DNA of 64,000 bases from Dehalococcoidia bacterium (GTDB lineage: Bacteria; Chloroflexota; Dehalococcoidia; Bin125), in contig OZ251457.1 of the NCBI GenBank assembly GCA_965242565.1, forward strand, positions 1,935,863 to 1,999,862. Direction: 5' to 3'. Shown piece after piece: positions 6,935 through 51,827 of this stretch. The translations under genes were made by a program, and so were the position numbers. Numbering within the stretch: position 1 is the stretch's first letter; each line of letters begins with the position of its first letter. The notes beneath the pieces were generated by a model. It was not told the origin of the DNA. It did no database searches and was given only the letters and a program-made list of their open reading frames with translations.

Positions 6935-7085
6935 CCCCGTGCTCCACCACTGCCACACCCACGCTCCACCACCGTCACACCCGCGCCCCACCTCCGCCAT
7001 GCCCACGCGCCCCACCTCCGTCATGCCCACGCTCACCATTTCCGTCATACCCGCGCTTGCCGCGGGTATCTCGACGCAACCGCCT
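6935..7085. repeat. Repeat cluster: degenerate tandem copies of 'tccaccNccgNcaNacccgcgc' ending in the intact palindromic module 'tccgtcatacccgcgcttgccgcgggtatctcgacgc'
   Basis: Perfect hairpin tacccgcg-cttg-ccgcgggta. The same module occurs at 27340-27375, 37240-37300, 37420-37455, 44275-44310 and 62840-62880. Confidence 0.6.
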
Positions 7086-7103
7086 CAAACGCCGTCTCCT
7101 CGC

Positions 7104-7373
7104 TCAGTCTCGCTCGGGCGCCGCCCGCTCGTAGCCCTCGTAGGCGATCGGTCGCGGTCGCACGCGAATGATCCGGATCTCGCGGCTCTCCCGATCCACC
7201 TCATACAGGACGCGCAAACTGCCCACGCGAATTCGCCACACATCCTCGTACCCCTGAAGCGGCGCGCCGCCCAACACACTGGCTCCGTTGCTCAGCGCGC
7301 GTCGTACTCGCTTCACCTCGCGTCGAGGTCTGGGGCTGAGCTGAGCGAGCTCGCGGTCCGCCTCCTCCGTCAC
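7104..7373 (-). CDS. Type II toxin, RelE/ParE family
   Basis: 89 aa; ...GYEDVWRIRVGSLRVLYEVDRESREIRIIRVRPR is the canonical RelE/ParE C-terminal signature. Confidence 0.75.
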   Translation of the reverse strand: MTEEADRELAQLSPRPRREVKRVRRALSNGASVLGGAPLQGYEDVWRIRVGSLRVLYEVDRESREIRIIRVRPRPIAYEGYERAAPERD

Positions 7374-7402
7374 AACGACGCGCCAGAGCCGATGCTGAGC
7401 CG

Positions 7403-7840
7403 CTATCGTTCTGCCCTGAAGAAATAGTCGGCCCCGAGCAGGTCGTCCATGTCCTCGGGGAACTCCTTATGGACCATGAAGAAGAACTCGCGGCTCTCCG
7501 GCGTGTAAGGGTCGAACACGAAGCGATCCATCTTTTCCAACGCGCCGGGGAGCTTCGCCTCGAGCGCGCGGTTCCACGCCTCTTCCTCCGCATCTTCCAC
7601 TTCCCAGCGGGCTTCAATTTCCTCGGCCGGAATGATCCTGGCGGTTGCCCGCCGCTCGGCCGCCACACGCGCGTCCTCGGCGTCCCATTCCGGCGTGAGG
7701 TCCTCGTCGAAGCCGACCACCTTCATCCACTCGGCGAACTCGTGCTCGCCGATCTTGATGGCGAGCTCAACCCGCTGCCGGCGATCCAGCCCCCGCCACG
7801 CCTCATGCATCAGCTGCTGCGCCTGCTCGTTGGTGACCAT
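7403..7840 (-). CDS. Putative antitoxin partner of RelE (addiction-module-like segment with an acidic C-terminal extension); atypical
   Basis: It ends 30 nt upstream of the RelE start on the same strand. The internal segment EWDAEDARVAAERRATARIIPAEEIEARW resembles the C-terminus of TIGR02574-type addiction-module components. The protein is 145 aa, much longer than usual. Assignment is tentative. Confidence 0.4.
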   Translation of the reverse strand: MVTNEQAQQLMHEAWRGLDRRQRVELAIKIGEHEFAEWMKVVGFDEDLTPEWDAEDARVAAERRATARIIPAEEIEARWEVEDAEEEAWNRALEAKLPGALEKMDRFVFDPYTPESREFFFMVHKEFPEDMDDLLGADYFFRAER

Positions 7841-7870
7841 GCCCGGCTCCTGTTCCCTGCTGCGCCCAAT

Positions 7871-8980
7871 CTATCGCAACAGCGCCCGCCCGACCGCCTC
7901 GGCGACCAGCTCGGGCGCACGCGCCATCGCCTCCTCTACGGGCATCCCCGATGGCGTGGACTGCTCGCCGGACGTCAGGCCCGGCAGCCGCCCGTCGCCC
8001 TCGATCAGACCGCAGACGGCGATGCACGGCTTGCCCGCCGCCTGCGCCAGCAGCGCCACCCCGGCGACCGACTTGCCCCATGCAGATTGCGTGTCCAGCC
8101 GCCCCTCCCCAGTCAGCACCAAATCCGACCGTGCGACCCGCTCGGCCAGCCCGATTGCGTTCGCCACCGCGTCGAAGCCGGAAACGAGTAGCGCCCCGCA
8201 AAACGCGGACAGCCCCGCGGCCAGCCCGCCCGCCGCGCCCCCGCCCGGCAGTTCCGCGATACGCACGCCCAGATCGCGCTCCACGATCCCCGCGTAGTTG
8301 GCCAGCGCGCGATCCAGGTCCGCCACCGCCGCCGCACCCGCGCCCTTCTGCGGCCCGTAGACCGCGCTCGCGCCGTCCGGCCCGATGAGCGGATTCTGCA
8401 CATCGCAGAGCACCGCGATTTCCGTCGCGGCGAGGCGCGAGTCCAATGCCGAGACATCGATCCGCGCCAGCCGCGCCAGCGCCGCGCCGCCAGGCGCGAG
8501 CGGACGCCCCACGTCGTCGAAGAACCGCGCGCCCAGCGCTGCCGCCGCGCCCGCTCCGCCGTCATTCGTCGCGCTGCCGCCCACCCCAATCAGCATCCGC
8601 TCCACCCGCGCCTCCAGCGCGTGCCCGATCAGCTCGCCCACGCCGTGCGTGGAGGCGCGGCGCGGATCCAGCTGCTCCGCACCCAGCAGCGTCAGCCCGG
8701 CCGCCGCCGCCATCTCGATTACCGCCGTGCGACCGTCGTCGATCCGCCCCCAACGCGCGTCAACCGGCGCGCCCAGCGGTCCGGAAACGCGGGCGATCGA
8801 GGTGCGCCCCCGCGCCGCCCGCACGATCGCCTCCACCGTGCCCGGCCCGCCGTCGGCGATCGGCGCGAGATCGAGCTCCGCGGCGGGATGCGCGCTGTGC
8901 GCGGCGTCGGCGAAACAGTCCGTCGCCTCCACCGCCGTCAGGCTGCCCTTGAACTCCTGCGGCGCGATGAGAATCCGCAT
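7871..8980 (-). CDS. glxK: Glycerate kinase
   Basis: MRILIAPQEFKGSLTAVEA... N-terminus, a Gly-rich nucleotide loop, and length 369 aa are typical of GlxK/GarK. Confidence 0.85.
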   Translation of the reverse strand: MRILIAPQEFKGSLTAVEATDCFADAAHSAHPAAELDLAPIADGGPGTVEAIVRAARGRTSIARVSGPLGAPVDARWGRIDDGRTAVIEMAAAAGLTLLGAEQLDPRRASTHGVGELIGHALEARVERMLIGVGGSATNDGGAGAAAALGARFFDDVGRPLAPGGAALARLARIDVSALDSRLAATEIAVLCDVQNPLIGPDGASAVYGPQKGAGAAAVADLDRALANYAGIVERDLGVRIAELPGGGAAGGLAAGLSAFCGALLVSGFDAVANAIGLAERVARSDLVLTGEGRLDTQSAWGKSVAGVALLAQAAGKPCIAVCGLIEGDGRLPGLTSGEQSTPSGMPVEEAMARAPELVAEAVGRALLR

Positions 8981-13344: not shown

Positions 13345-14520
<1,176 letters not shown>

Positions 14521-14583
14521 CGCGCCCACCGCCGACGGAACCTTCGCGCGCCTCGCAGCGTTAAGGCGGGCAGGAGGTCCGAC

Positions 14584-16449
14584 ATGCGTTCATTCGTCAT
14601 CCGCCGTCGCAATGCGTTCACCGCGCTGGCGCTGGCCGCGCTCTGCGCCGCAGCGCTGATCCCGCCCCTCGCGCTCTCGCAAGGCCGCCAGGGCTGCAAC
14701 GACCTGCTCGCCTACTACCGCGAAGCCGCGCGCGCGCCGCAGATCTACTACGAAGAGGCCGTCGAGGAAGAGGAAGCAGCGGTGGCGGATGAGACGGAAG
14801 AGGCGGATTTCGGCTTTGCAGAAGACGCGATGTCAGGCGACGGTGCGATGCCGGCGAACGACGGTTTCGCCCTCCCGCAGTCAGACGGCGGCCCGCCCGC
14901 TGACCTTGGCGAGCGCTCCGAAACCGGCACCAACGTGCAGGTCGCCGGCGTTGACGAATCCGACATCGTCAAGACCAACGGCTCCGAAATCTTCGTCCTG
15001 CGCGACGACTCCCTGGTCGTCGTCTCCGTGCGAGAGGACCCGCCGCAGGTCATCGGCGGGCTGGCTCTCGACCGCGACGCGTCGACTTCTGCCGGCGAGC
15101 CGCGCGAAATGCTGTTGGCCGGTGAGCGCCTGCTGATCTTCCGCAACGTGATCTACGACAGCCGCTTCTGGTCGCAGCCGGGCGTGCAGATCATGGAAGT
15201 GGACGTGAGCGATCCGGCGAGCCCTCGCGCGCTGCGCACGCTCGACGCCTACGGCGAGTTTGTCACCGCGCGGTTGGCCGGCTCCGGCGTGCGAGTCGTG
15301 ATGAGCCACGACGGCGCCGACAGCCCCACGCTCACACCGCGGCCGGGCGAGACATGGGAGCAGCGGATCCGGCGGAGCGGACTCTCCACCTGGCTGCCCC
15401 TCTACACCCTGACCGATCGTGAAGGAGCGCGGAGCTGGGGCCTGCTCACCCCCTGCGACGCGGTGCAAATGCCGGCGACCGAGGACCGGCGCTACGGCAA
15501 CACGGAGACCACGCTGCTACTCAGCTTCAACCTCGCCGAAGGCATCGCCGACTGGAACGCGGCCGGCTTCGTCGGCTCGACCGACGCCGTCTACGCCGGC
15601 TCCAACTCGCTCTACATCGCCTCCTCGTTCGGCGGCTGGATCCCCAACACGCGCATTCACCGCTGGGACACGCCGCCCGGCGGCGCACCCGTCTACCAGG
15701 GCACCGCGGAGGTCGAGGGCTGGCTGATCAACCAGTTCGCAATGAGCGAATACCGCGGCAGGCTGCGCGTCGCCACCACCATCGAGGGCTCTTGGCCAAT
15801 CAGCAGCCGACTCACGATCTTCGACATCGGCGATGACGGCCTGACCGAACTCTCGAAGCTGGACGGGCTGGGCCCGTCCGAGCGGATCTACGCCGTCCGT
15901 TTCCTCGGCGAGCTCGGCTACGTCGTCACCTTCCGTCTGATCGACCCGCTCTACGTGCTCGATCTCTCCGATCCCGAAAACCCCGCCGTCGCCGGCGAGC
16001 TCAAAATCCCCGGCTTCTCTTCCTACCTGCACCCGCTCGGCGGCGGCCTGCTGCTCGGCGTGGGCCAGAACGCCGACCCGCACACCGGACAGCCGCTCGG
16101 ACTACAGGTCTCGCTCTTCGACGTCTCCGATCCCGCCGAACCGACGCGCCTGGACCAGGTCGATCTCTCGGCGGGTTCGCGCAACGTGACATTCGAGCAC
16201 CGCGCCTTCACCTACCACCAGGGCCGCGCCTACATCCCCGCCTCGCCCACCAACGACCTCTTCGCCGTGCGCGTCACGTCCGAAGCCCTGGAACTCGAAC
16301 GCCAAATCACCGCCCAGGACGAAGTGCTGCGCAGCCTGCCCGTCGGCGACCGCCTGCACCTCCTGCTCGAAGGTTCGCTCGCCACCCACGACCTGGCCAC
16401 CCTCGACCTGCTCAGCGGCGTCTACCTCGTCTCGCCGAGCAGCCGTTGA
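14584..16449 (+). CDS. Secreted beta-propeller domain protein (Beta_propel-like family)
   Basis: Signal peptide MRSFVIRRRNAFTALALAALCAAALIPPLALS. C-terminal motifs IYAVRFLGELGYVVTFRLIDPLYVLDLSDPENP...LGVGQNAD are typical of the 'beta propeller domain' family. Confidence 0.5.
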   Translation: MRSFVIRRRNAFTALALAALCAAALIPPLALSQGRQGCNDLLAYYREAARAPQIYYEEAVEEEEAAVADETEEADFGFAEDAMSGDGAMPANDGFALPQSDGGPPADLGERSETGTNVQVAGVDESDIVKTNGSEIFVLRDDSLVVVSVREDPPQVIGGLALDRDASTSAGEPREMLLAGERLLIFRNVIYDSRFWSQPGVQIMEVDVSDPASPRALRTLDAYGEFVTARLAGSGVRVVMSHDGADSPTLTPRPGETWEQRIRRSGLSTWLPLYTLTDREGARSWGLLTPCDAVQMPATEDRRYGNTETTLLLSFNLAEGIADWNAAGFVGSTDAVYAGSNSLYIASSFGGWIPNTRIHRWDTPPGGAPVYQGTAEVEGWLINQFAMSEYRGRLRVATTIEGSWPISSRLTIFDIGDDGLTELSKLDGLGPSERIYAVRFLGELGYVVTFRLIDPLYVLDLSDPENPAVAGELKIPGFSSYLHPLGGGLLLGVGQNADPHTGQPLGLQVSLFDVSDPAEPTRLDQVDLSAGSRNVTFEHRAFTYHQGRAYIPASPTNDLFAVRVTSEALELERQITAQDEVLRSLPVGDRLHLLLEGSLATHDLATLDLLSGVYLVSPSSR

Positions 16450-42044: not shown

Positions 42045-43093
42045 CCGACATCGACGCCACCGAAATCCTCCCCCTCGAGCCGCTCCGCGACTTCGGCGAG
42101 GCCGTCTATCAGGCCTGCGGCGTGCCGCCCGCCGACGCCGCGCTGACCGTCGAAATCCAGCTCACCGCCGACCTGCGCGGCGTCGACACCCACGGCTTCC
42201 AGCGCCTGCCCTGGTACGCCGGACACCTGCGCGAGGGCCGCTACAACCCCACGCCCAGCCTGGCCGCAATCCGCGAGACGCCCGTCTCGCTGCTGGTCGA
42301 CGGCGACGGCGGCATCGGTCAGCTGGCCGTCGCCCGCACCATGCAGCGCACCATCGCAAAGGCGCGCGAAACCGGCCTCGCGCTGGGCGCGCTGCGCAAC
42401 TCCAACGACTGGGGCATGGGCGCTTACTACCCGATGCTGGCCGCCGCCGAAGGCTTCGTCTCCTTCTGCACCACCACCTCCGTGCCCACCCTCGCCCCGT
42501 TCGGCGCGCGCACCCGCATGACCGGCAACAACCCCATGGCCTTCGCCGCCCCGCGCACCTCCGGCCCGCCGATGGTGCTCGACATGGCGCTCACCCCCGT
42601 TGCGCTCGGCAAAGTGATGCGCGCCCGTGCCGAGGGCCGCGAGATTCCTGAAGAGTGGAGCTTCCTCGATCTGGAGGGCCAGCCCACCACCGATCCGCAA
42701 ACCGCGCTCGGCGGCATCATCCCCGCGCTCGGCGCGGTCAGCGCTTACAAGGGCAGCGGCCTCAGCCTCTTCATGAACCTGCTCGCCGGCGCGCTGCCCG
42801 GCAGCGCCCACTCCGCCGCCGTCGAAATCGGAAAGCGCGGACAGTTCCTGCTGGTCGTCTCCCCCGACCTCTTCGGCGAGGCCGCCGAGTTCGAGGCCGC
42901 CGTCGACGAAATCTGGCGCCAGGTCAAATCCGCCGACCCGCTGCCCGGCGTCCAGGAGGTGCTCGCCCCCGGCGAGCAAGAGCAGCGCACCCACGACGAA
43001 CGCAGCGCCGCCGGCCAAATCGCCTACCCCGCCTCCACCGTCCGCGACCTCCGCGACCTCTCCGCCGACCTGGGCATCCCCCTCGATGCGTAA
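42041..43093 (+). CDS. Ldh_2 family malate/L-lactate/sulfolactate-type dehydrogenase
   Basis: [22 protein letters not shown]..., [10 protein letters not shown], and [29 protein letters not shown] are Ldh_2 (YlbC/AllD-like) signatures. ATGA start/stop overlap with the cupin gene. Confidence 0.75.
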
Positions 43094-44132
43094 GCGCGCC
43101 GCGCTCGCCGTCGTCGTCGCGCTGCTGATCGGCGCATTCGCCGCGCTCGTCGGCTGCGCTGAAGACGATCCGCCGCCGCCCGCGCTGCAACAGGTCGAGC
43201 AGGAAGATCCGCAGCCGGCCAAGCAGGACGACGGCCCGCCGCAGGCCGCGCAAGCGCCGCCGCAAGAGCAGCAGGCGGAGCCGCAATCCGAACGACCTCA
43301 GCCTGAGCCGTCATCGAGCGATGGCCTGCCCTTCGCCGAGGACGCCGCGCTGCTCGCTCGCTTGCAGGTCGCGGACGAGTGGGACGGCGACGTCGACTAC
43401 GACCGCGATACTTACCTACCCGGCGGCTGGGGCGACGCCGACGGCGACGGCTGCAACACCCGCGAGGAGGTGCTGATCGCCGAAGCGCGCGCGATCACCA
43501 GCGTCAACCAGTGGTGCCGTCCCATCGACGGCATCTGGTGGTCCTGGTACGACGAAATCGAGTTCGACGATCCGGGCGAGATCGACATCGACCACATGGT
43601 GCCGCTTTTCGAGGCGCACCACTCCGGCGGCTGGCAGTGGTCCGGGCCTCGGCGCATCGCCTTCGCCAATGACCTGGACGAGCCGGCCGCGCTGACTGCC
43701 GTCTCATCTCGCAGCAACCGCGAAAAGAGCGCCGATGATCCCGCAGAGTGGCGTCCACCCGCGCGTTCGGCGTGGTGCCAATACGCGCGCGACTGGATCA
43801 CCGTCAAAGCGCGCTGGTACCTCACAGCCGACCAGGCCGAGGTCTCGGCGCTGCGAACAATGCTCGAAACCTGCGAAGCGCCGCCCGAATCTCGCCCGGC
43901 GGAACAGCTCGATCGCCCTGTCCGCCGCGTCGAAGTGGGCGAGCGGGAGAACGACCGACCAGCACCTCAGCCGACAGGCGAGCGAAAGGCTGTCTACGAC
44001 TCCTGCGACGAAGCCGAAGCCGCCGGCGAGCCGCGCATCCAGGGCGAGCGCGGTACAGGCCAAGGCTTCCCCGCCGCAAAAGTCCCCGCCGCCCGCGACG
44101 GCGACGAAGACGGCGTCGTTTGCGAGCGATAG
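43086..44132 (+). CDS. Secreted lipoprotein with DUF1524 (His-Me finger/HNH-like nuclease) domain and C-terminal Excalibur Ca-binding domain
   Basis: Lipobox [27 protein letters not shown]...[30 protein letters not shown] is the DUF1524 pattern. C-terminus [14 protein letters not shown] is Excalibur-like (DxDxDGxxCE). Confidence 0.55.
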
Positions 44133-44139
44133 TCGCGCC

Positions 44140-44560
44140 CCTCGCCCCTCGCCCCTCGCCCCTCGCTCGATCTACCCATCGCCTCAGTCATGCCCACGTT
44201 TGCGTCTCCGCCGTACCTGTGCCTGCGCTCCTGCGGTACCCGCACTTGCATCCCCGTCATACCCGCGCTTGCACTTCCGTCATACCCGCGCTTGCCGCGG
44301 GTATCTCGCCGTGAGTAGCGCCGATTTCCGTAGCGTCCCCTTATCCCGTCCGGCCCCGCACACACGCACCCACTCGTCGCGCCCGACTTGATCGGGCGCC
44401 CAAACCCGCCCCCGTCCGCAGCACAAGGGATCCGAACCATCCCCGACGTCTGTGCGAGGGCATCTCGGTACGCCGCCCCGCCAGCCGTCGTCGTATGGAT
44501 TCCCGCTCAAGGTGGGAATGACGGAGTGGGGAGGCATGACGGAATAACCATCTCCGCCGG
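44140..44560. repeat. Repeat cluster (palindromic 'ccgtcatacccgcgcttgc(a/c)...' modules and 'gcccgacttgatcgggcgcccaaacccgcccccgtccgcagcacaag' at 44379-44430)
   Basis: Same family. This copy of the hairpin module again has compensatory stem changes (gcgcccga/tcgggcgc). Confidence 0.6.
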
Positions 44561-44585
44561 CAACTGGAGTTTCGCTCTAGAACCC

Positions 44586-44942
44586 CTATGCAGGGGGACT
44601 GCCGCTTCCAGCGGTTGGGCGGTCGGCCGCCCCACCAGCAAGCGTCCTCTCGTGGCGCACCAGCGCCGCTGCCGCAACCGCGCCCGACAACCACGACGCC
44701 CCGATCAGCGCCCACAGACCCGCCTCCAACCCAACCAACCCCCAGACCGCCGCGAAGACCGCCACCGCTCCCTGCACCGCCAGCGCCTCCGCCCGACGCT
44801 CCACCAGCGACGCCGCCAGACAGACCGACAGCGCCAGCCCCGCCGCCGCCGACGCCCACCAGGCGCTCTCCAGCCACGCGACCGCCGCAACGATCGCAAC
44901 CACGGCGGACAGCGCCGCCCACGGACCGATTTGTTTCCACAT
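44586..44942 (-). CDS. Hypothetical membrane protein
   Basis: 118 aa with 3-4 predicted TM helices. No recognisable family; coding status uncertain in high-GC DNA. Confidence 0.3.
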   Translation of the reverse strand: MWKQIGPWAALSAVVAIVAAVAWLESAWWASAAAGLALSVCLAASLVERRAEALAVQGAVAVFAAVWGLVGLEAGLWALIGASWLSGAVAAAALVRHERTLAGGAADRPTAGSGSPPA

Positions 44943-45074
44943 GTCGCCGCCCCAATCGCCCGCAGACTACTCCCCCGCGTGCGCCGTCAAACCCTGCCGC
45001 GCGACAGAACACAGTTACGCGGCGGCTATCGTGCGCAGCGAAGGGGGACGCCGGTGGACGAACGCGAACAACGC

Positions 45075-45989
45075 ATGCGCCTCGCCGCATTCGCCCATGC
45101 CGAGCGGCTCAGCCGCGCCAACGGCGGACTGACCGGCGACCAGCTCAACGCCGGCTTCCCCTTTGAGGGCGAATACATCCCGCTCGTCCGCCGCCAACAG
45201 GGCATCGGCAAGGTCGCCGCCATGCCCCATCTGCTCTCGCTGCGCACCGCTTGGTTGAAGAGCAACTCGATCTACGACGACCAGGCTTTCGCGCACGATC
45301 AGATTGTCTCGAACGACGGAGAAATCACCTACGAATTCATGAAGGGCGGCCCCGACCACCCGCTGAACCAGCACCTCCTCGCCGCGTGCGATCTGGAAAT
45401 CCCCGTGATCTACTTCCTCGCCGTCGCCCAGGGCTTCTATCACGCCTTCATGCCCGTTTGGATCGTCGATTGGTTGCCCCACGCCGGCGAATACGGCCAA
45501 GTCCGTCTCGCTTTCGGGCTGCCCGGCGGCGATCGCCCCGTGCTCGCCGCCGAGCGCCGCGCCGGGCTGGTCGCCGCCCAACGCGGCCTGCGCGGCGCCC
45601 GTTTCCGCGAGCAGGTCGTCCACGCCTACCGCCAGCGCTGCGCCATCTCCGGCGAAGGCGGCGACAGAACCGCCGCCGATCGGCGGCGCGCCCGCCGCCT
45701 GCTCGGCGTCCTCGACCTCAACGGCGAGCGCGCCGAATCCCGCTCGCCCGCCCACGGCCTGCTGCTCGGCAAACTCCACCGCGCCGCCTTCGAGTCCAAT
45801 CTGATCGGCATCGACCCCGACTACCGCGTGCGCGCCTCCCAACGCCTGCTCGCAGAGACCGACGATCCCCTGACGGCCGCCCTGCGCGAGCTCGACGGCG
45901 CCCCGCTACGGCTGCCCAACTACCCTGAGCACCGCCCCGACCGCGACCTGCTCGCCGCCCACTACCACGACTTCCTCCACGCCGATTAG
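45075..45989 (+). CDS. HNH_2-like (restriction-endonuclease-like) domain protein
   Basis: ARFREQVVHAYRQRCAISGE...PAHGLLLGKLHRAAFESNLIGIDPDY resembles the HNH_2 family (F-R-x-x-V-x-x-A-Y...C-A-I-x-G ... L-H-x-A-F-D). The middle segment is atypical. Start ATG 45075 within the longer ORF-track frame. Confidence 0.45.
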   Translation: MRLAAFAHAERLSRANGGLTGDQLNAGFPFEGEYIPLVRRQQGIGKVAAMPHLLSLRTAWLKSNSIYDDQAFAHDQIVSNDGEITYEFMKGGPDHPLNQHLLAACDLEIPVIYFLAVAQGFYHAFMPVWIVDWLPHAGEYGQVRLAFGLPGGDRPVLAAERRAGLVAAQRGLRGARFREQVVHAYRQRCAISGEGGDRTAADRRRARRLLGVLDLNGERAESRSPAHGLLLGKLHRAAFESNLIGIDPDYRVRASQRLLAETDDPLTAALRELDGAPLRLPNYPEHRPDRDLLAAHYHDFLHAD

Positions 45990-46087: not shown

Positions 46088-47224
46088 ATGGCCAGCAGCA
46101 TCTACTACTCGTGCGACTCCCACGTGGTCGAAGCCCCCGAAGTCTTCGACGGACTCGTCGACCGCTTCGGCGACCGCGCCCCCCGCGTGGTCGACAAGTG
46201 GAAGGACCGCGAAGCCGTCTTCGTCGCCTGGCCCAGCATCGACTTCGCCATGTCCGTCGGACGCCTCGGCATCGCCGGCGCCAACCTCAACCTGCCCGAA
46301 ACCAAGGAGAAGATCGCCCGCGGCTGGGACCTGATCAACCCTGGCGTCAAAGACCCCGTCGCGCGCCTCTCCGAGCAGGAGCAGGACGGCATCGTCGGCG
46401 AGGTCATGTACCCCTCGATCAACATGCTCACCTACATGGTCGACGACGTCGAAGTCGTCAACGCCGTCTTCCAGCGCCACAACGACTGGATCCGCGACTA
46501 CTGCTCGCACGCCCCCGAACGGCTGATCGGCGTCGGCTGCGTCACCCTGCGCGACGTCGACCTCGCCATCGCCGAGCTCAAGCGCTGCGCCGACATGGGC
46601 ATCAAGGGCGTCGCCATCCCCTGCACCGCGCCCGCCGACAAGCCCTACTCCGCCCCCGACTACGAGCCCTTCTGGGAGGCCGCCGAAGACATCGGCCTGC
46701 CGCTCACCATGCATATCTTCTGCGGCTCCGAGCCCGGCATGAGCCTGCCCAAGGAGTGGGACCAGGTCGTCTCCTACACCCTCGCCCACGCCGCCGCCTG
46801 GAACACCGTCTCCAACCTCGTCACCTCCGGCGTCTGCGAGCGCCACCCCAACCTCCGCTTCGTCATGGCCGAGTGGGAAACCGGCTGGATCGCCCATGTC
46901 CTCCAGCGCTGGGACCACGCCTACTACCGCGCCCGCGCCGTCGACCAGACGCCCGAACTGCCGATGCTGCCCACCGAATACTTCCGCCGCAACTTCATGG
47001 TCACCTTCGAGGACGACGACATCGGCGTCCAAACCCGCGAGCAGATCGGCGTCGAAAACCTGCTCTGGGGCAACGACTACCCCCACCACGACGCGATCTG
47101 GCCCAACAGCCGCAAGATCCTCGACGAGATCATGGCCGGCGTCCCCGCCGAAGAGGAAGAGGCGATGGTCTGGGGCAACGTCCAAAAGCTCTACAACATC
47201 AACCGCGCCGCCCTCCCGGCCTGA
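46088..47224 (+). CDS. Amidohydrolase-2 (ACMSD-like metal-dependent hydrolase/decarboxylase) family protein
   Basis: YYSCDSHVVEAPEVF..., ...HIFCGSEPG..., NLLWGNDYPHHDAIWPNS are Amidohydro_2 signatures. Confidence 0.75.
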   Translation: MASSIYYSCDSHVVEAPEVFDGLVDRFGDRAPRVVDKWKDREAVFVAWPSIDFAMSVGRLGIAGANLNLPETKEKIARGWDLINPGVKDPVARLSEQEQDGIVGEVMYPSINMLTYMVDDVEVVNAVFQRHNDWIRDYCSHAPERLIGVGCVTLRDVDLAIAELKRCADMGIKGVAIPCTAPADKPYSAPDYEPFWEAAEDIGLPLTMHIFCGSEPGMSLPKEWDQVVSYTLAHAAAWNTVSNLVTSGVCERHPNLRFVMAEWETGWIAHVLQRWDHAYYRARAVDQTPELPMLPTEYFRRNFMVTFEDDDIGVQTREQIGVENLLWGNDYPHHDAIWPNSRKILDEIMAGVPAEEEEAMVWGNVQKLYNINRAALPA

Positions 47225-47251
47225 GGCCGGCCGCCATCGCTTTGAGATCAC

Positions 47252-47275
47252 GTGATCTCAAAGCGATTGTTGGGC
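47252..47275. terminator. 24-bp perfect palindrome (ctttgagatcacgtgatctcaaag) just 3' of the amidohydrolase gene; terminator or operator
   Basis: Perfect self-complementarity followed by gattgtt. It lies in a locally AT-richer segment (47230-47450). Confidence 0.4.
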
Positions 47276-47304
47276 CGGTGAAAAGGCTCATCGGATCGCT
47301 AAGA

Positions 47305-47440
47305 ACCTGTCAGTGTCAATGATTCTGACACTAAACTGACAGTTCCAGCGACGCCTGATGGCGATCTGGTAGCGTATGCCGCGCCGTCCTGATACTGTCA
47401 GTGTCAGCGAAATTGACACTCAACTGACAGTTCCGCAAAG
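47305..47440. promoter_or_regulatory. Two about 40-bp nested-palindrome operator-like sites (ctgtcagtgtcaNNgaNNNtgacactNaactgacagttcc) upstream of Fic gene 2
   Basis: Copies at 47309-47348 and 47395-47435 are nearly identical. Each contains ctgtcag...ctgacag and gtgtca...tgacac inverted pairs. Confidence 0.45.
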
Positions 47441-47449
47441 GGACGTCAT

Positions 47450-48799
47450 ATGCGGCTGCCTGAGCCCTCCCCACCCCTGCCGGCCCTGATGCGCGAGTTC
47501 CAGTCGCTCGATCCGGAGCGCCAGGTCCGCCTGATCGACGAGTCGGAAACGCTTGACTCCAAAGGCCGCTACCTGCATTGGGATCAAGTCCGCCGCCGTC
47601 CACCGCCGGACGGACTGTCGCACCGCGCCTGGTGGCTCGGATTTGTTCTCGCGCGTCGCACCGGGCGCCAACGACTGCCGCTGCTCGGCAAGGGCGGCCT
47701 GCCCTTCTGGTTCTGTCACGTTGCGCCGGTGCTGGCGCCGCTGCAACGCCTCGACCGCGAGATGGCGGGCCACATCCTGCTTGACGAGCGCGTCGTCGAC
47801 CGCAGCGATCGCGACCGTTACCTGGTGAGCTCGCTGATGGAGGAGTCGATCCGCTCCAGCCAGCTCGAGGGCGCCAACACGACGCGACTCGCCGCGCGGG
47901 AAATGCTCCGCTCCGGGCGTCGCCCGCGCGATCAGGGCGAGCGAATGATCTTCAACAACTTCGCCGCCATGACCACCGTGGAGCGCTGGGCTCAGGACAG
48001 CCGTGCCGTCACCCCCGACCGCCTGCTCACGCTGCACGAAATCGTGACCCGCGACACCCTCGGCGATCCCGCTGACTCGGGGCGGATCCAGCAGCCCGGC
48101 GAAGCCCGGGTCTCAGTCGTATCCGGCGACGGCTCTGTGGTGCATACGCCGCCGCCCGCTGAAGAGCTGCCGGAGCGGATCGAACGTCTCTGCGCGTTCG
48201 CCGCCGGCGACCTCGACGAGGGCTATCTCCACCCCGCCATCCGCGCCATCCTGCTCCACTTCATGATCGGCTACGACCACCCCTTCGTCGACGGCAACGG
48301 CCGCACCGCCCGCGCCCTCTTCTACTGGAGCCTGTTGCGCTCCGGCTACTGGCTCGCCTCTTATCTCTCGATCTCCAACCTGCTGCGCGCGGCGCCCAGC
48401 AGGTACTCCCGCGCCTATGAGTACGTCCACGCTGATGCCAACGATGCCACCTACTTCCTCATCCACCAGCTGAGCGTGATCGAGCGCGCCGCTGATCAGC
48501 TGCAGGAGTACATCGCCCGGCAGACGCGCCGCGCCGCCGCCGTCGCGCTGGCGCTCAAACAGATCCGCGGCCTCAACAAGCGGCAAGAATTCGTGCTTGA
48601 GCGGGCGCTGCGCCAGCCGGACGCGGAATTCACCGTCGCGGGACACGAGATCGAATATCGGGTCTCCTACGGCAGCGCCCGCTCCGACCTCACCGATCTG
48701 GTTGAGCGCGGCCTGCTGATCCGGCGGCGCAGCGGCAAAAAATTCGTCTTCCGCCCCGCCCCGGACCTCCCCGACCGCCTCGGCGGCGATGCGCGCTAG
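47450..48799 (+). CDS. Fic family protein (second copy; HPFVDGNGRTAR motif)
   Basis: HPFVDGNGRTARALFYWSLL is the Fic motif. N-terminal Fic_N region (SSQLEGANTTRLAAREM). C-terminal winged-helix-like tail. The start may instead be MREFQSL at about 47489. Confidence 0.75.
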   Translation: MRLPEPSPPLPALMREFQSLDPERQVRLIDESETLDSKGRYLHWDQVRRRPPPDGLSHRAWWLGFVLARRTGRQRLPLLGKGGLPFWFCHVAPVLAPLQRLDREMAGHILLDERVVDRSDRDRYLVSSLMEESIRSSQLEGANTTRLAAREMLRSGRRPRDQGERMIFNNFAAMTTVERWAQDSRAVTPDRLLTLHEIVTRDTLGDPADSGRIQQPGEARVSVVSGDGSVVHTPPPAEELPERIERLCAFAAGDLDEGYLHPAIRAILLHFMIGYDHPFVDGNGRTARALFYWSLLRSGYWLASYLSISNLLRAAPSRYSRAYEYVHADANDATYFLIHQLSVIERAADQLQEYIARQTRRAAAVALALKQIRGLNKRQEFVLERALRQPDAEFTVAGHEIEYRVSYGSARSDLTDLVERGLLIRRRSGKKFVFRPAPDLPDRLGGDAR

Positions 48800-48802
48800 C
48801 CT

Positions 48803-49717
48803 GTGGAGGAGGAGGCGCACATGCCGTCGGAACGCGAGGAAGCCGGGCTGCCGCACTATCCCGAACTGCGCTGGGTCACGTTGCAGGCGATGCGCGCCAT
48901 GCCGCTTCCGGCGTCGAACGCGGAGATCAACGAGGCCGTCGCCGACGCGCTTGGCCTGACCGACGAGCAGCGAGCCGTGATGCACTACCAAAGCTCCGGC
49001 ACTCGCCGGACGGAGTTGGAGTATCGCGTCGCTTGGGCGCGGACTGCTCTGCGGGTCGCGGGCGCAATCGACAGCGCCGGTCGCGCCGCGTGGACCGTGA
49101 CGGCTGAAGGCCGCCGAATTCGTCAGGATGTCATCAATCGGCGCTACGAGAGGCATTTGGCCGAACGCGCCGAACAACGCAGGCAGCAACAGGGAGTCGA
49201 CGCGCCAACGCCGCCCGTTGACAACGGGCCCGAATCGCCTGCTGATGTCGATTGGAAAGAGCAACTGCTCGCCCGGTTGGGCGAACTGTCGCCTGCCGGA
49301 TTCGAACGACTCGCTGGCCGTCTGCTCGTCGCGGCGGGATTCCACGATGTCGACGTACTCGGTCAGAGCGGCGACGGTGGGATCGACTGCGTCGGCATGT
49401 ACCGTCTGTCGTTGATCTCGTTCCCAACCTACGTTCAGTGCAAGCGCTATCAAGGATCGGTGAGCGCCGGCATGGTCCGTGATTTGCGCGGCGCGATGGT
49501 CGGTCGCGGAGATCGCGGTCTCCTGATCACCACCGGTACCTTCACCAAAGCCGCTCAATCCGAAGCGACACGCGACGGAGCGCCGCCAATCGAACTGATC
49601 AACGGCGAGGCGCTCTGCGACTTGCTCAAAGAATACGAACTCGGTGTCCGCGCCACGAAGCGCACCGTCGAAGACATCGATATCGAAGACGACTACTTCG
49701 AGAGGCTCGAACCATGA
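48803..49717 (+). CDS. mrr: Mrr-family type IV restriction endonuclease (Mrr_N winged helix + Mrr_cat PD-(D/E)xK)
   Basis: N-terminal Mrr_N-like segment (LRWVTLQAMRAM...INEAVADALGLTDEQRAV...SGTRRTELEYRVAWARTAL). Catalytic segment GQSGDGGIDCVG...YVQCKRYQG. Confidence 0.75.
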   Translation: MEEEAHMPSEREEAGLPHYPELRWVTLQAMRAMPLPASNAEINEAVADALGLTDEQRAVMHYQSSGTRRTELEYRVAWARTALRVAGAIDSAGRAAWTVTAEGRRIRQDVINRRYERHLAERAEQRRQQQGVDAPTPPVDNGPESPADVDWKEQLLARLGELSPAGFERLAGRLLVAAGFHDVDVLGQSGDGGIDCVGMYRLSLISFPTYVQCKRYQGSVSAGMVRDLRGAMVGRGDRGLLITTGTFTKAAQSEATRDGAPPIELINGEALCDLLKEYELGVRATKRTVEDIDIEDDYFERLEP

Positions 49718-50826
49718 CCAACCAACCCACCGTCGCCGTACTCCCCGGCGACGACGCCGCGCCCGAAGCGGTGCATGCCGTGATGACCGTGCTCCAGGCG
49801 ATGGTATTGCCCATCGAGTGGCGCATTCTGCCCGATGGCGAGGAGATCGCCCGCACGATGTCCCGCGAAGAGGGCGAAGCCTTGGTCCGCAACGCCGCCG
49901 ATGAGTGCGATACCGTGCTTTTCGGCTCCACCAATGGCCAGACGCCCGGCGTCGGTTACTTCCGCTGGGGCCGCGAAACATACGCCAACGTGCGGCCCAT
50001 TCGCTGGCGGTCCGGCTTTCGCTCGCCGCTTGCCGATCCCGAGGGCATCGACTACGTGATCGTGCGCGAAAACCTCGAAGACCTCTACGCCGGCATCGAG
50101 GGCGACCTCGCTGAGGTCGCGGCCTCCGGCATCGCCGACGGACCGCGCGTGGGCGGCGTCTCGCGCACGCCGATCGCGGGCGGCTTCCAACACTTCGCCG
50201 AGGCCGAAGGACGTTACGCCATCAAGTACTTCACCCGCGCCAACGTCGAGCGCGTCGCCCACTTCGCCTGCCGCCTCGCGCAGCGCCGCCGCGGGCAGGG
50301 GCATCCCGGCAAGCTCACCTGCTCCGCCAAAACAAACGTACTGCGCCGCAGCGACGGCTGGTTCGTCGAAATCGCCGGCGAGGTCGCCGCCGGCTACCCC
50401 GACATCGAATTCGAAACGTTTATCGCCGACGATTTCGCCCGCCGCCTCGTCGCCAGCCCGCACGACCTCGACGTCGTCCTGCTCCCCAACCTCTACGGCG
50501 ATATCTTCTCCGACGAGGGCGCGGGCACCATCGGCGGCCTCGGCCTCGCGCCCTCCGGCTGCTTTGGCGACGACTGGGCCTACTTCGAATCCGTCCACGG
50601 CACCGCGCCCGACATCGCCGGCCAGCACCGCATTAACCCCACCGCTACGATGCTCTCCGCCGCGATGATGCTCGACCACCTCGGCCTCTCCGAGCAGGGC
50701 GCCCAACTCGAGCGCGCCGTCGAAGCGACCTACGCCGCCGGCGACCGCCTCACCCCCGACCAGGGCGGCGACGCCACCACCGAGCAGTTCGCCGAAGCCG
50801 TCTTGGACGCGCTCGCCATATCCTGA
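49714..50826 (+). CDS. Isocitrate/isopropylmalate dehydrogenase family protein (tartrate/IPM dehydrogenase-like)
   Basis: NLYGDIFSDEGAGTIGGLGLAPSG and HGTAPDIAGQ...NPTATMLSAAMML are family signatures. ATGA overlap with mrr. Confidence 0.8.
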   Translation: MTNQPTVAVLPGDDAAPEAVHAVMTVLQAMVLPIEWRILPDGEEIARTMSREEGEALVRNAADECDTVLFGSTNGQTPGVGYFRWGRETYANVRPIRWRSGFRSPLADPEGIDYVIVRENLEDLYAGIEGDLAEVAASGIADGPRVGGVSRTPIAGGFQHFAEAEGRYAIKYFTRANVERVAHFACRLAQRRRGQGHPGKLTCSAKTNVLRRSDGWFVEIAGEVAAGYPDIEFETFIADDFARRLVASPHDLDVVLLPNLYGDIFSDEGAGTIGGLGLAPSGCFGDDWAYFESVHGTAPDIAGQHRINPTATMLSAAMMLDHLGLSEQGAQLERAVEATYAAGDRLTPDQGGDATTEQFAEAVLDALAIS

Positions 50827-50839
50827 TCACGGGTGTGGA

Positions 50840-50937
50840 TGGCGGGAGCGCATGGGAGTCGAACCCACCCGAGACGGCGCGGGCCGCCCCGCAACGGTTT
50901 TGAAGACCGGGAGGGCCACCGGGCCCCTTCCGCTCCC
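50840..50937 (-). tRNA. selC: tRNA-Sec (selC), anticodon UCA
   Basis: Minus-strand sequence GGGAGCGG-AA-GGGGCC-CGGT-GGCCCT-CCCGGT-CTTCAAA-ACCGTT-(24-nt extra arm GCGGGGCGGCCCGCGCCGTCTCGG)-GTGGG-TTCGACT-CCCAT-GCGCTCCC-G-CCA. D-stem 6 bp with 4-nt loop CGGT. Anticodon loop CU-UCA-AA. T-loop TTCGACT as in E. coli selC. 9-bp variable-arm stem. Discriminator G and encoded CCA. About 8-nt acceptor strands (one G-G mismatch at the last pair). Confidence 0.7.
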
Positions 50938-50967: not shown

Positions 50968-51396
50968 CTAGCGATCGGGCACCGCGAGATGCATGTCCCC
51001 GGCGACGACGAGCTTCTGAAGCGCCCGCGACAGCCGCGGCGTTTCTCGATGTAGTCCACTGATCTCGCTGTGCGACGGGAAGCCGGCGAGCGGAGCATGC
51101 CTGATGTGCAAGAACTGCCCGGGCCGCAACCGTGCCGCATCTCTCGCCTGTCCCACGTTGATCACCGCGAATCGGCCGTTCCGTCGCAACCGCAGGTTCG
51201 CCCCAACCTCACGGCCCAGATCGTTGAATGTAGCCTCGTCCGCCACATCCCCAAAGTGCTCGACCCAAACGACCGATAAGGGCGCGTCGAGCGGTTCCGG
51301 CACGAACGCATCCAGCAGCGGCAGCCCGTCCACGACCATCCGTGGACTGCAATAGCGGGCGACGTGATCGGCGTCCGGTAGGTCGTCGCCCGTCAT
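50968..51396 (-). CDS. Hypothetical protein (142 aa), second gene of a two-gene cassette next to selC
   Basis: ORF with ATGA overlap with the upstream ORF. No family recognised. Confidence 0.35.
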   Translation of the reverse strand: MTGDDLPDADHVARYCSPRMVVDGLPLLDAFVPEPLDAPLSVVWVEHFGDVADEATFNDLGREVGANLRLRRNGRFAVINVGQARDAARLRPGQFLHIRHAPLAGFPSHSEISGLHRETPRLSRALQKLVVAGDMHLAVPDR

Positions 51397-51827
51397 CGAC
51401 GCAGCAGCCTGTCAATGAACGGTTGCATCGCAACCTCGGCCTCAGCCGGTGTCAGCGTGCTGTTGACGGGTGCGCAATTCGGCATGCGCTCGGGCTCGTC
51501 GAACGCTGCGTAGATGCGGATCAGACCGTCGGCCAGGAAGGTCAGCGCCACAATTCCGGGAGGATCGAGCAACCACTCGATCTGAACGAGCCCGTTGGGC
51601 TTTACGCCGATGCGCGGATCGGGCAGCGTGGAGCACCGTCGCAACAGCTCGGCGAACCGGCGCAGCGACTCGATGTTGATCGGCTCCTCGTCCGGATCGT
51701 CGCCGTCCAGGCTGAGCAGATACGTCACGCGCTCTGCCGCTGTGAAGCGTTGACGCGCCTCGAGCTCGCGCACGATCTCATCGGCGCGCGGGTCCGCCGG
51801 CGTCGACTGCTCCCGTAGTGTCGTCAT
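51393..51827 (-). CDS. Hypothetical protein (144 aa), first gene of two-gene cassette
   Basis: ORF only; no family recognised. Confidence 0.35.
   Translation of the reverse strand: MTTLREQSTPADPRADEIVRELEARQRFTAAERVTYLLSLDGDDPDEEPINIESLRRFAELLRRCSTLPDPRIGVKPNGLVQIEWLLDPPGIVALTFLADGLIRIYAAFDEPERMPNCAPVNSTLTPAEAEVAMQPFIDRLLRR

Follow-up and report, generated by a model that had tools for sequence, protein, structure and literature searches.

Hypervariable restriction loci can lie between conserved genes, as does the E. coli 'immigration control region' (mcrBC-hsdRMS-mrr), where the restriction or defence alleles differ from strain to strain and are exchanged by recombination in the flanks. Among Fic proteins, CccR from Yersinia pseudotuberculosis has been shown experimentally to be a negative autoregulator: it represses the promoter of its own gene through a 10-N26-10 inverted repeat close to the -35 and -10 boxes (PMC9755527). 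SoFic dimers bind the 100 bp that precede their own start codon, and they AMPylate EF-Tu; negative autoregulation was suggested for SoFic as well (bioRxiv 10.64898/2026.07.09.737422). Sofic was also described as an abortive-infection toxin (PMC12249575). Coxiella burnetii Fic2 (PDB 8CIL), with 17-19% identity to the Fic protein analysed here, is an effector that an intracellular pathogen directs at its host (PMC10628234). We analysed a Fic gene and an Mrr gene lying side by side in a 64-kb stretch of DNA (the window). The interval is, in our assessment, likely to consist of two independent single-gene defence-type modules in a conserved slot between an Amidohydro_2 gene and an isocitrate/isopropylmalate-dehydrogenase family gene (Iso_dh; IsoDH), with a Fic that represses its own expression.

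The genes and repeats listed in an initial annotation of this DNA were all found in or close to their proposed places, with small corrections. A conserved Amidohydro_2 gene (46088-47224) borders the slot on the left and is followed on the same forward strand by the Fic gene (47450-48799, 449 aa), the Mrr gene (48821-49717) and the Iso_dh gene (49714-50826), which is the conserved right border. The tRNA-Sec gene (selC, 50840-50937; ARAGORN; Rfam RF01852, 69.7 bits) lies on the reverse strand, with its 3′ end facing IsoDH 13 nt beyond the IsoDH stop. The slot comes between two paired metabolic genes. IsoDH matched Pfam Iso_dh (1.9e-72) and stayed under every NCBIfam equivalog cut-off; its start overlaps the Mrr stop by ATGA, as had been described. 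By its domains, the Mrr protein is an ordinary type IV (modification-dependent) nuclease with an Mrr_N winged helix (7.6e-16) and Mrr_cat (1.3e-28). The PADLOC models mREase_IV (4e-31) and PDC-S02 (2.8e-32) matched it, and its catalytic region GDGGID...VQCK aligned to MspJI (4F0P) and AspBHI (4OC8). The first in-frame Mrr start is GTG 48803 (ORF 48803-49717), 3 nt past the Fic stop. The likelier start, judged from sequence, is ATG 48821, preceded by GGAGGAGGAGG, which leaves a gap of 21 nt in line with the 21-30 nt gaps called in relatives.

The order amidohydrolase-Fic-Mrr-IsoDH-tRNA-Sec was shared by all 10 genomes sampled, which belong to one clade, probably of Chloroflexota. Across the slot genomes the border genes were conserved, with 84-100% amino acid identity for Amidohydro_2 and 80-98% for IsoDH regardless of the Fic or Mrr allele. 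The slot Fic alleles were monophyletic, yet their mutual identity was only 48-95%. Against relative L008, DNA identity fell from 96-100% in the stretch up to about 47200 to 52-80% over the operators and Fic, and rose again to 89-98% from 48800 onwards, whereas the comparison with L001 gave the reverse pattern, with 88-97% in Fic and 41-73% in Mrr. The proteins behaved in the same way, with identities in the flanks, Fic and Mrr of 98-100, 58 and 93% for L008, 93-99, 95 and 48% for L001, and 79-96, 59 and 70% for L007. In L006, Fic was kept with only an Mrr_N remnant and a different Mrr_cat-only gene. Fic and Mrr alleles have been swapped independently, with breakpoints at gene borders. The mixed combinations of deeply diverged alleles point to homologous recombination, acting within the conserved borders and the conserved Fic 3′ end, as in other restriction-gene hot spots. 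The proposed horizontal acquisition therefore stands as far as the genes have been exchanged horizontally, but it resembles allelic replacement inside a fixed slot and not insertion of a new island. We conclude that the locus is a hypervariable defence slot in which Fic and Mrr are of known kinds with a presumed anti-phage role.

The initial annotation had also presented Fic and Mrr as one block, in a combination not recognised from described systems. The two might cooperate, with Fic as an abortive-infection back-up or as a regulator of Mrr, in one autoregulated operon that includes IsoDH. Every slot genome had the two genes side by side, with order and strand unchanged, even at a Fic identity of 48-60%, no terminator was called in the short Fic-Mrr gap, and Mrr overlaps IsoDH. 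Further nuclease-type genes gather around the pair in relatives, and Fic and the Mrr-type gene are probably co-transcribed, as a functional link would likewise predict. Nevertheless, we regard cooperation as unlikely. The window Fic is combined with an L008-type Mrr, the L001 Fic with an Mrr of 48% identity, and the L006 Fic with the remnant described above. The pairing was seen only within this one syntenic clade. None of the 80 distant Fic loci (40-53% identity) taken from other phyla among the matches listed had an Mrr within 10 kb or a conserved neighbour (the largest neighbour cluster held 6/80), and the one Mrr homologue sampled outside the slot stands alone, without Fic. PADLOC also recognises each protein by models of single-gene systems, Fic by SoFic and Mrr by mREase_IV and PDC-S02.

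Fic scored 63 bits against Pfam Fic (cut-off 24), and the PADLOC SoFic model matched aa 122-434 (4.7e-36), while the NCBIfam SoFic equivalog reached 31 bits, far under its 550-bit cut-off. The motif HPFVDGNGRTAR (nt 48278-48313, residues 277-288) is canonical, in agreement with the proposed AMPylation competence. A suggested search for an inhibitory (S/T)xxxE(G/N) helix found SSQLEG within Fic itself (nt 47855-47872, S136-G141, with the glutamate at E140). S136, S137, E140, G141 and the HPFxDGNGRTAR motif were invariant in 20 homologues. Residues 1-107 form an extra N-terminal domain. An AF2 model (pLDDT 84.7) placed the winged-helix elements at H377-388, H396-403, H407-419 and a wing at 423-436, with the recognition helix beginning at Y407-G408-S409 (nt 48668-48706).

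Upstream of Fic, two 40-nt repeats were 85% identical and 88 nt apart, which bore out the claim of two nearly identical nested-palindrome sites. Each contains four half-sites (TGTCA/TGACA), of which two are direct and two are inverted. In the distal site (47307-47346) TGTCA lies at 47308-12 and 47314-18 and TGACA at 47326-30 and 47337-41, and in the proximal site (47395-47434), which ends 16 nt upstream of the Fic ATG, the half-sites lie at 47396-400, 47402-06, 47414-18 and 47425-29. The pattern was found nowhere else in the window, with 0 expected in shuffles, and the core ACTGTCARTGTCA was present twice per locus in 5/200 fetched loci, only upstream of Fic. The sites were conserved upstream of Fic in syntenic relatives, where the two copies changed in step; L006, for example, has GTGTCAAAGTCAAC...TTGACTTC...CTGACAC in each copy. 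At least 28/62 Fic loci from other phyla carried two copies of a palindromic site with at least 18 of 24 positions matching, compared to at most 17 of 24 in shuffles of those same loci, and, relative to the start codon, one site in most of these loci occupied about -150 to -75 and the other about -75 to -25. A putative extended -10-like element read from the sequence, TGATACTGT (TGnTAnnnT, 47390-47398), overlaps the left half-site of the proximal repeat. Other slot alleles have TGTTACTGT, CGTTACTAT and TGATATTAT at the same place, and other phyla have TATACT at this position; a scan with the strict sigma-70 consensus found no promoter.

The half-sites also followed the protein. Fic residues 407-409 were YG(S/T) with TGTCA, YAT with (T/C)ATCA (L008, L009/L013, L021 and L087, on four separate tree branches), YQT with TACTAA, (P/V/T)QT with TGCTAA, and (H/G)ET with CTCCAA. 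Two loci fetched later fitted this covariation, L196 with TATCAA operators and YAT, and L195 with L007-type operators and YWA. The exceptions were L046 and L047, with YET and TACTAA-type sites. The classes largely track the Fic phylogeny, so common descent could account for some of the covariation. Because the same two-site layout precedes homologues in many phyla without a shared neighbour, and because the half-site sequence co-varies with residues 407-409, the two repeats are most likely Fic's own operators, and Fic most likely represses its own promoter. That the winged-helix tail of Fic itself could bind the nested palindromes was the best-supported suggestion of the initial annotation, and CccR and SoFic are published precedents for it.

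Alternatively, the repeats could be RNA hairpins in the Fic 5′ leader that affect stability, attenuation or translation, which we consider improbable. Both fold as bulged hairpins (-14.6 and -15.2 kcal/mol, z about -3), the palindrome is often kept through changes (GTGTCA/TGACAC to AAGTCAA/TTGACTT in L006), and the proximal repeat, probably downstream of the -10-like element, would be transcribed. The distal copy, however, probably lies upstream of the promoter, the repeats had no Rfam matches, both copies in a genome keep one sequence and not just one structure, and the half-sites follow the recognition helix. Homologous sites in other lineages contain direct half-site runs with about 10-11 bp spacing (5+2 in L021 and L061, 2+5 in L030), and a hairpin cannot explain these because direct half-sites cannot pair. 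Another hairpin probably sits at the left edge of the Fic cassette. The perfect palindrome reported as 24 bp exists but spans 32 bp (47236-47267, 12 nt past the amidohydrolase stop), with 16+16 nt arms that are 100% complementary, and as RNA it would have -27.2 kcal/mol (z = -5.0). It occurs once in the window (shuffles expect 0), and a related long hairpin was found only in L001 and L002, which carry the same Fic allele. Identity to L008 collapses from about 47232. It lacks a T-run and was not called by a terminator scan; it is probably a terminator or insulator hairpin.

An island newly acquired at the 3′ end of selC, also proposed at first, is very unlikely: neither this nor a Fic-Mrr system fits, because relatives exchange both genes independently, and the gene order was identical in 10/10 sampled relatives, with IsoDH between Mrr and the tRNA in every slot genome. 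The intergenic segment 47225-47449 is AT-richer, as noted at first (GC 0.53 versus 0.69 for the whole window), and the selC 3′ side takes insertions in relatives (a GmrSD_N gene in L001; DUF1828 and DUF6978 genes in L196), but in the window this insertion site is empty because merely 13 nt separate IsoDH from selC. A second copy of the tRNA 3′ end was absent within 64 kb, as was an att repeat, and a scan of ORFs from 43 to 54 kb turned up no integrase domain. The compositional anomaly held only for Mrr, the sole gene so shifted, with a mildly low GC3 of 0.73, whereas Fic (0.86) was within the flank range of 0.84-0.94.

Under the preferred reading of a slot with an autorepressing Fic, the Fic cassette (about 47232-48790) encodes a class II Fic AMP-transferase whose active site, HPFVDGNGRTAR, is predicted to be kept off by its own glutamate E140 in SSQLEG. 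A Fic dimer would bind the two composite operators through its C-terminal winged helix and, because the proximal operator overlaps the extended -10-like element, occupancy would block RNA polymerase and give negative autoregulation as in CccR. Mrr is probably co-transcribed with Fic and is translationally coupled to IsoDH. By analogy with SoFic only, release of auto-inhibition might lead to AMPylation of a host target such as EF-Tu and to abortive-infection-like growth arrest.

CccR (PDB 7XUX) is, like the window Fic, a class II protein: an inhibitory (S/T)xxxE(G/N) helix lies in the N-terminal part and a DNA-binding domain, predicted in the window Fic, at the C-terminus. Its 10-N26-10 repeat is similar to the outer half-sites CTGTCAG-N23-CTGACAG that overlap the -10-like element. 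In contrast, the two proteins share about 20% identity, about 70-100 residues are added at the N-terminus of the window protein, and in place of the single inverted repeat of CccR there are two composite operators in tandem, each with four half-sites. Unlike for CccR, nothing points to secretion of the window Fic or to a link with a T6SS. SoFic (Shewanella oneidensis SO_4266; PDB 3EQX/3ZCN) is a dimeric Fic-wHTH protein that binds its own promoter region and, like the window Fic, is a stand-alone gene in variable contexts. Transfer of its target or defence function to the window Fic is weak because identity is about 18% and the NCBIfam threshold is far off; the window protein has its extra N-terminal domain, and, unlike at SoFic, Mrr begins 21 nt after the Fic stop and so leaves no space for a small downstream antitoxin ORF of the AS1 type. 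The window Mrr shares Mrr_N plus Mrr_cat, the mREase_IV match and the lack of an adjacent methyltransferase with known Mrr/MspJI-type type IV endonucleases, and differs only in its coupling to IsoDH and its position in a swap slot. The slot itself resembles the immigration control region in its fixed position and conserved flanking genes, a likeness of pattern only, in another organism and with other cargo (Fic plus Mrr), and the common ground between the two is the Mrr family.

The gene block and repeats of the initial annotation proved real, and four co-directional genes plus tRNA-Sec were confirmed in the window, whose GC content is 69%. On the plus strand, Pfam placed an Amidohydro_2 gene (46088-47224), a 449-aa Fic gene (47450-48799) and an Mrr_N + Mrr_cat nuclease ORF (48803-49717) ahead of an Iso_dh-family gene (IsoDH, 49714-50826), which overlaps the Mrr stop via ATGA. 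tRNA-Sec (selC, 50840-50937) lies 13 nt past IsoDH on the minus strand, convergent with it. The 225-nt spacer before Fic has a GC of 0.53. A perfect palindrome was present, as annotated, but it was 32 bp long (47236-47267) and not 24 bp. Fic and Mrr indeed adjoin, but the 4-nt spacing was probably underestimated: the likeliest Mrr start is ATG 48821, preceded by the Shine-Dalgarno sequence GGAGGAGGAGG and 21 nt from the Fic stop, and the called gaps in relatives were 21-30 nt. Rfam returned nothing besides tRNA-Sec, either over 44-54 kb with an E limit of 1 or over the full window under gathering thresholds.

Further genes lie around this interval. On the 5' side of tRNA-Sec, two minus-strand ORFs of 142 aa (50968-51396) and 144 aa (51393-51827) overlap by 4 nt and had no Pfam, NCBIfam, PADLOC or PHROG match. 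This small-gene pair varies among relatives: the 144-aa ORF was found in the comparison loci L001, L007, L008 and L195 (52-92%), and the 142-aa ORF matched only in L001 (87%) and L007 (61%, partial). Upstream of the amidohydrolase gene, a plus-strand ORF (44388-45989) has a long N-terminal stretch that appears non-coding and a 304-aa C-terminal part (~45078-45989) that matched PADLOC 'HNH' (2.7e-14) and, weakly, an NCBIfam phosphorothioated-DNA-binding restriction endonuclease (32 bits against a cut-off of 180), with no Pfam match. A 348-aa protein (43086-44132, plus strand) begins with a signal peptide of lipoprotein type (…LVGCAEDD) and has a GmrSD_C (DUF1524) nuclease domain followed by an Excalibur calcium-binding domain at the C terminus; it resembles a nuclease for export more than a defence enzyme acting inside the cell.

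The Fic protein has the Fic fold, scored above the Pfam family-profile threshold and carries the canonical active-site motif HxFx(D/E)GNGRxxR that had been claimed for it (HPFVDGNGRTAR, residues 277-288). A search for the inhibitory motif (S/T)xxxE(G/N), suggested with the annotation, located it within Fic itself, N-terminal to the core, as S136-S-Q-L-E140-G141 (SSQLEG), which falls within helix 118-139/140 of the AlphaFold model. The active-site motif and S136, S137, E140 and G141 were invariant in 20 homologues (49-79% identity). Since SSQLEG is on the same chain as the invariant active-site motif, the protein is predicted to be a class II Fic, self-inhibited by its own E140. In the model (pLDDT 84.7), an additional N-terminal domain (1-107) precedes the Fic core, which is followed by a C-terminal winged helix-turn-helix whose recognition helix starts at Y407-G408-S409.

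An exact-protein look-up of the window Fic found no identical protein on record. The nearest named homologues were from Chloroflexota for both Fic and Mrr and from Dehalococcoidia MAGs for IsoDH (64-67%), so the lineage may be Chloroflexota/Dehalococcoidia. Fic belongs to a large, uncharacterised subfamily of ~445 aa that occurs in many phyla and on viral contigs. Among IMG/VR contigs predicted to be viral or prophage, about 30 (L115-L146) encode full-length homologues with 33-45% identity, and at least one such contig (L115) had TACTAA/TTAGTA palindromes 5' of Fic. The PADLOC model for SoFic, a known Fic protein with a C-terminal DNA-binding domain, matched aa 122-434 (4.7e-36, 122.9 bits; curated cut-off not displayed). 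The NCBIfam SoFic equivalog gave 31 bits, and since this is far under its cut-off of 550, the window Fic appears to be a relative of SoFic and not an orthologue.

Two 40-nt direct repeats, 85% identical and 88 nt apart, lie 5' of Fic (distal, 47307-47346; proximal, 47395-47434), and each is made up of four half-sites (TGTCA/TGACA), of which two are direct and two inverted. Neither the repeats nor the 32-bp palindrome occurred elsewhere in the window, and the number expected by chance was 0. The predicted Fic promoter region holds putative inverted-repeat operators of the type described for CccR, another Fic protein with a C-terminal DNA-binding domain, in the form of two composite palindromic sites. 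Of 62 loci from other phyla that could be analysed, no fewer than 28 had two copies of a palindromic site in the 250 nt 5' of Fic, matching at 18 or more of 24 positions; the loci's own shuffles reached a maximum of 17. In most of these two-site loci one site was around -150 to -75 and the other around -75 to -25. The two-site layout is a property of the Fic family, not of the window locus.

The half-sites were lineage-specific (TACTAA, TGCTAA, TATCAA, TGTCA, CTCCAA, TACCAA and others), and both operator copies within one genome had the same variant. Direct half-site runs with ~10-11 bp spacing were seen at several sites. The half-site class followed the three residues that open the recognition helix (407-409): YG(S/T) with TGTCA, YAT with (T/C)ATCA, YQT with TACTAA, (P/V/T)QT with TGCTAA and (H/G)ET with CTCCAA. 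The YAT class was found on four separate branches of the Fic tree. Two loci fetched later agreed with the pattern: L196 combined YAT with TATCAA operators, and L195 had YWA, as in L007, with L007-type operators. Family-wide, these three residues may form a code from which the operator half-site can be read, and the covariation predicts that changing YGS to YAT should move the preference from TGTCA to TATCA. Because Fic is the sole gene common to all two-site loci, Fic itself is predicted as the most economical binder of the operators. The earlier guess that the winged-helix tail of Fic acts on the nested palindromes is thus well supported by comparative evidence, namely the family-wide layout and the covariation at 407-409.

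In the window, a -10-like element (TGATACTGT, 47390-47398) overlaps the left half-site of the proximal operator, so that binding would occlude RNA polymerase; the predicted transcription start is at about 47405, within that operator. A -10-like element was at the equivalent place in the other alleles of this interval, and a TATACT box was there in other phyla. The -10 assignment rests on comparison and not on the promoter scan, because the scan found no promoter. Terminator calls were only on the minus strand, within genes, and about as numerous as in shuffles. Another explanation is that the 40-nt repeats act as RNA hairpins, and they do fold with a z of about -3. However, this explains less than protein operators, as direct half-site runs ~10-11 bp apart do not fit any hairpin. 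The 32-bp palindrome, confined to the Fic cassette of the window/L001 type, is most simply a putative terminator or insulator hairpin 3' of the amidohydrolase gene.

Mrr is a protein of ~298 aa with thousands of homologues, named 'restriction system protein' in several sources. Its DNA-binding domain Mrr_N (58.5 bits, threshold 29.5) and its PD-(D/E)xK-type nuclease domain Mrr_cat (99.9 bits, threshold 21) both passed in Pfam, and PADLOC mREase_IV and PDC-S02 matched. The catalytic stretch GDGGID...YVQCK aligned to the MspJI catalytic region in one weak pairwise alignment (E 4.6e-4), which gives candidate D...(Q/E)xK catalytic residues, and AspBHI aligned with the Mrr catalytic region as well. 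The neighbours of Mrr are Fic and IsoDH, and a scan of ORFs over 43-54 kb detected no methyltransferase domain. Mrr is predicted to be a standard solitary Mrr-family type IV restriction endonuclease. IsoDH fell well below every NCBIfam equivalog cut-off, the best score being homoisocitrate dehydrogenase AksF2 (233 bits against 540). Through the ATGA overlap, IsoDH is translationally coupled to the preceding Mrr gene regardless of its allele, as seen for the window and five relatives (L001/L002, L005, L007, L195 and L196).

A single gene order, Ldh_2 ... Amidohydro_2 – Fic – Mrr-type – IsoDH – tRNA-Sec – [variable] – (NUDIX) – DUF4956 – VTC – CotH, was found in ten distinct genomes (the window, L001/L002, L003/L004, L005, L006, L007, L008, L089/L090, L195 and L196), and it was kept even where Fic identity was 48-60%. 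We refer to the interval between Amidohydro_2 and IsoDH as the slot. The loci of one of these lineages (L089/L090) came from a metagenome scan with the amidohydrolase, which added outgroups in which this protein was 68-71% identical. In the outgroups IsoDH is directly upstream of the amidohydrolase gene (L092, 7802-11125; L105, 208-2154; L107, 755-2500; gaps of 37-1150 nt), and no Fic or Mrr was found within 10 kb where flank was available. The adjacency suggests that IsoDH and the amidohydrolase gene are old neighbours whose order was reversed in the slot clade, and the lack of Fic and Mrr near the outgroup pair argues for a single arrival of both beside these metabolic genes, at the root of the slot clade. 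Several relatives have, on the opposite strand and ~7-8 kb upstream of the slot, a second and shorter Fic gene of 386 aa with the SoFic-like architecture Fic_N + Fic (L005, 1-720; L006, 1-31; L089, 2869-3201).

Profiles of identity per 100 nt revealed that Fic and Mrr alleles were exchanged separately. Compared to L008, the window DNA was 96-100% identical up to 47200, 52-80% over 47200-48700 (operators and Fic), 89-98% over 48800-49600 (Mrr) and 90-100% from 49700 (IsoDH); compared to L001, the values for the same segments were 94-100%, 77-97%, 41-73% and 83-97%. The sharp breakpoints at ~47230, ~48790 and ~49700 are gene borders, and one crossover probably fell in the conserved patch at the 3' end of Fic (…KKFVFRPAPDLPDRLG). 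Protein identity to the window, with flanks taking in NUDIX, DUF4956 and VTC where present, was 98-100% for flanks, 58% for Fic and 93% for Mrr in L008; 93-99%, 95% and 48% in L001; 79-96%, 59% and 70% in L007; 65-89%, 57% and 61% in L195; and 58-88%, 48% and 57% in L196. In a tree with 80 Fic sequences of other phyla, from among the matches listed, the slot alleles formed one clade, so Fic diversity in the slot is old, internal to the lineage and shuffled by recombination.

Relatives carry additional nuclease-type genes in several places, namely GmrSD_C, GmrSD_N, DUF4268 and GIY-YIG genes, one gene of 864 aa and a second Mrr gene with Mrr_cat only. The slot has the pattern of a defence hot spot, comparable to the immigration control region of E. 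coli. It exemplifies how defence-type genes are swapped separately, with breakpoints at gene borders, between conserved metabolic genes of an uncultured lineage. The 864-aa gene of L008 (5135-7729), between the amidohydrolase gene and Fic, marks a further variable slot position and had only faint Mrr_cat, Mrr_N and HARE-HTH matches. In L003/L004 the Mrr_cat-only gene (253 aa; L003, 10255-11016) is between Mrr and IsoDH. The same gene replaces full-length Mrr in L006 (9678-10439), leaving an Mrr_N-region remnant (63% over aa 11-88), and in L089 the corresponding stretch (~13950-14730) is an unannotated gap.

Adjacency of Fic and Mrr is universal, and co-transcription probable, within the slot clade, as would be expected of a functionally linked two-gene system. 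However, such a link is improbable. Among the matches listed in a genome-collection scan with the Fic alignment were 80 loci with full-length homologues at 40-53% identity, distant relatives only, which test spread and not the slot clade; they span Dehalococcoidia, Acidimicrobiia, Actinomycetes, Gamma- and Betaproteobacteria, Planctomycetota, Verrucomicrobiota and others. Mrr, IsoDH or amidohydrolase was detectable near none of these 80 listed loci, and ORF clustering across them gave no conserved neighbour, so Fic stands alone there without a fixed partner, like a SoFic-type system. An Mrr homologue outside the slot, P0230, was alone in several contigs of one shared context. The mosaic allele combinations indicate that the two genes are not co-inherited. 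Independent allele exchange, the missing conserved neighbour and the lone P0230 argue that Fic and Mrr are separate single-gene modules sharing a slot. A larger variant, in which Fic-Mrr-IsoDH is a single autoregulated operon where Fic, as repressor and AMPylase, sets expression of the nuclease and dehydrogenase and serves as an abortive-infection back-up once Mrr is evaded, is also quite unlikely; if true, such coupling of function would account for the lasting adjacency of Fic and Mrr in the slot clade despite the deep turnover of their alleles.

Acquisition as a horizontal island integrated at selC was not supported: Mrr is mildly lower in GC3 (0.73) than the flanks (0.84-0.94), but Fic (0.86) is within their range, IsoDH (80-98% aa) intervenes between Mrr and selC in every slot genome, and the last 18-30 nt of tRNA-Sec had no second copy in the window with up to 5 mismatches allowed. 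No integrase was found beside tRNA-Sec, where the flanking ORFs are IsoDH and the 142/144-aa pair, and the ten syntenic genomes showed no presence/absence polymorphism, the block and its order from Amidohydro_2 to tRNA-Sec being the same in 10/10. The Fic-Mrr block is native to one clade. Two readings, a new Fic–Mrr two-gene system and a selC island, are thereby removed as a false lead. The 3' side of selC is an insertion point in some relatives and is empty in the window. Between IsoDH and the tRNA-Sec 3' end, L001/L002 carry a 520-aa GmrSD_N protein (L001, 11409-12971) and L196 carries DUF1828 and DUF6978 proteins (6995-8267).

The architecture, motifs and fold were observed, as were synteny, mosaicism and the conservation and covariation of the operators; beyond these we propose a mechanism in which Fic dimers, or two dimers per composite site, would bind both operators and keep the operon at a low level, with the enzyme presumably held inactive by E140. 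Activation, by analogy with SoFic/Sofic only, would lead to AMPylation of a host target, with EF-Tu as the candidate, and growth arrest; Mrr would cut modified incoming DNA independently of Fic. SoFic AMPylates EF-Tu (bioRxiv 10.64898/2026.07.09.737422), and Sofic is described as an abortive-infection toxin (PMC12249575). In contrast to E. coli Sofic, the window Fic leaves no space downstream in which a small AS1-like ORF could fit. CccR acts as a repressor of its own promoter via inverted repeats (10-N26-10) close to the -35 and -10 boxes (PMC9755527), and dimeric SoFic binds the 100 bp that precede its start codon (bioRxiv 10.64898/2026.07.09.737422). The predicted binding of Fic upstream of its own gene agrees with this published autobinding. 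What is modestly new is the clean cassette exchange at the slot and the family-wide, sequence-readable autoregulatory architecture of the ~445-aa Fic subfamily: autoregulation by the protein's own winged helix was shown earlier for CccR and suggested for SoFic, and here it looks like a general property of a subfamily that can be read from sequence.
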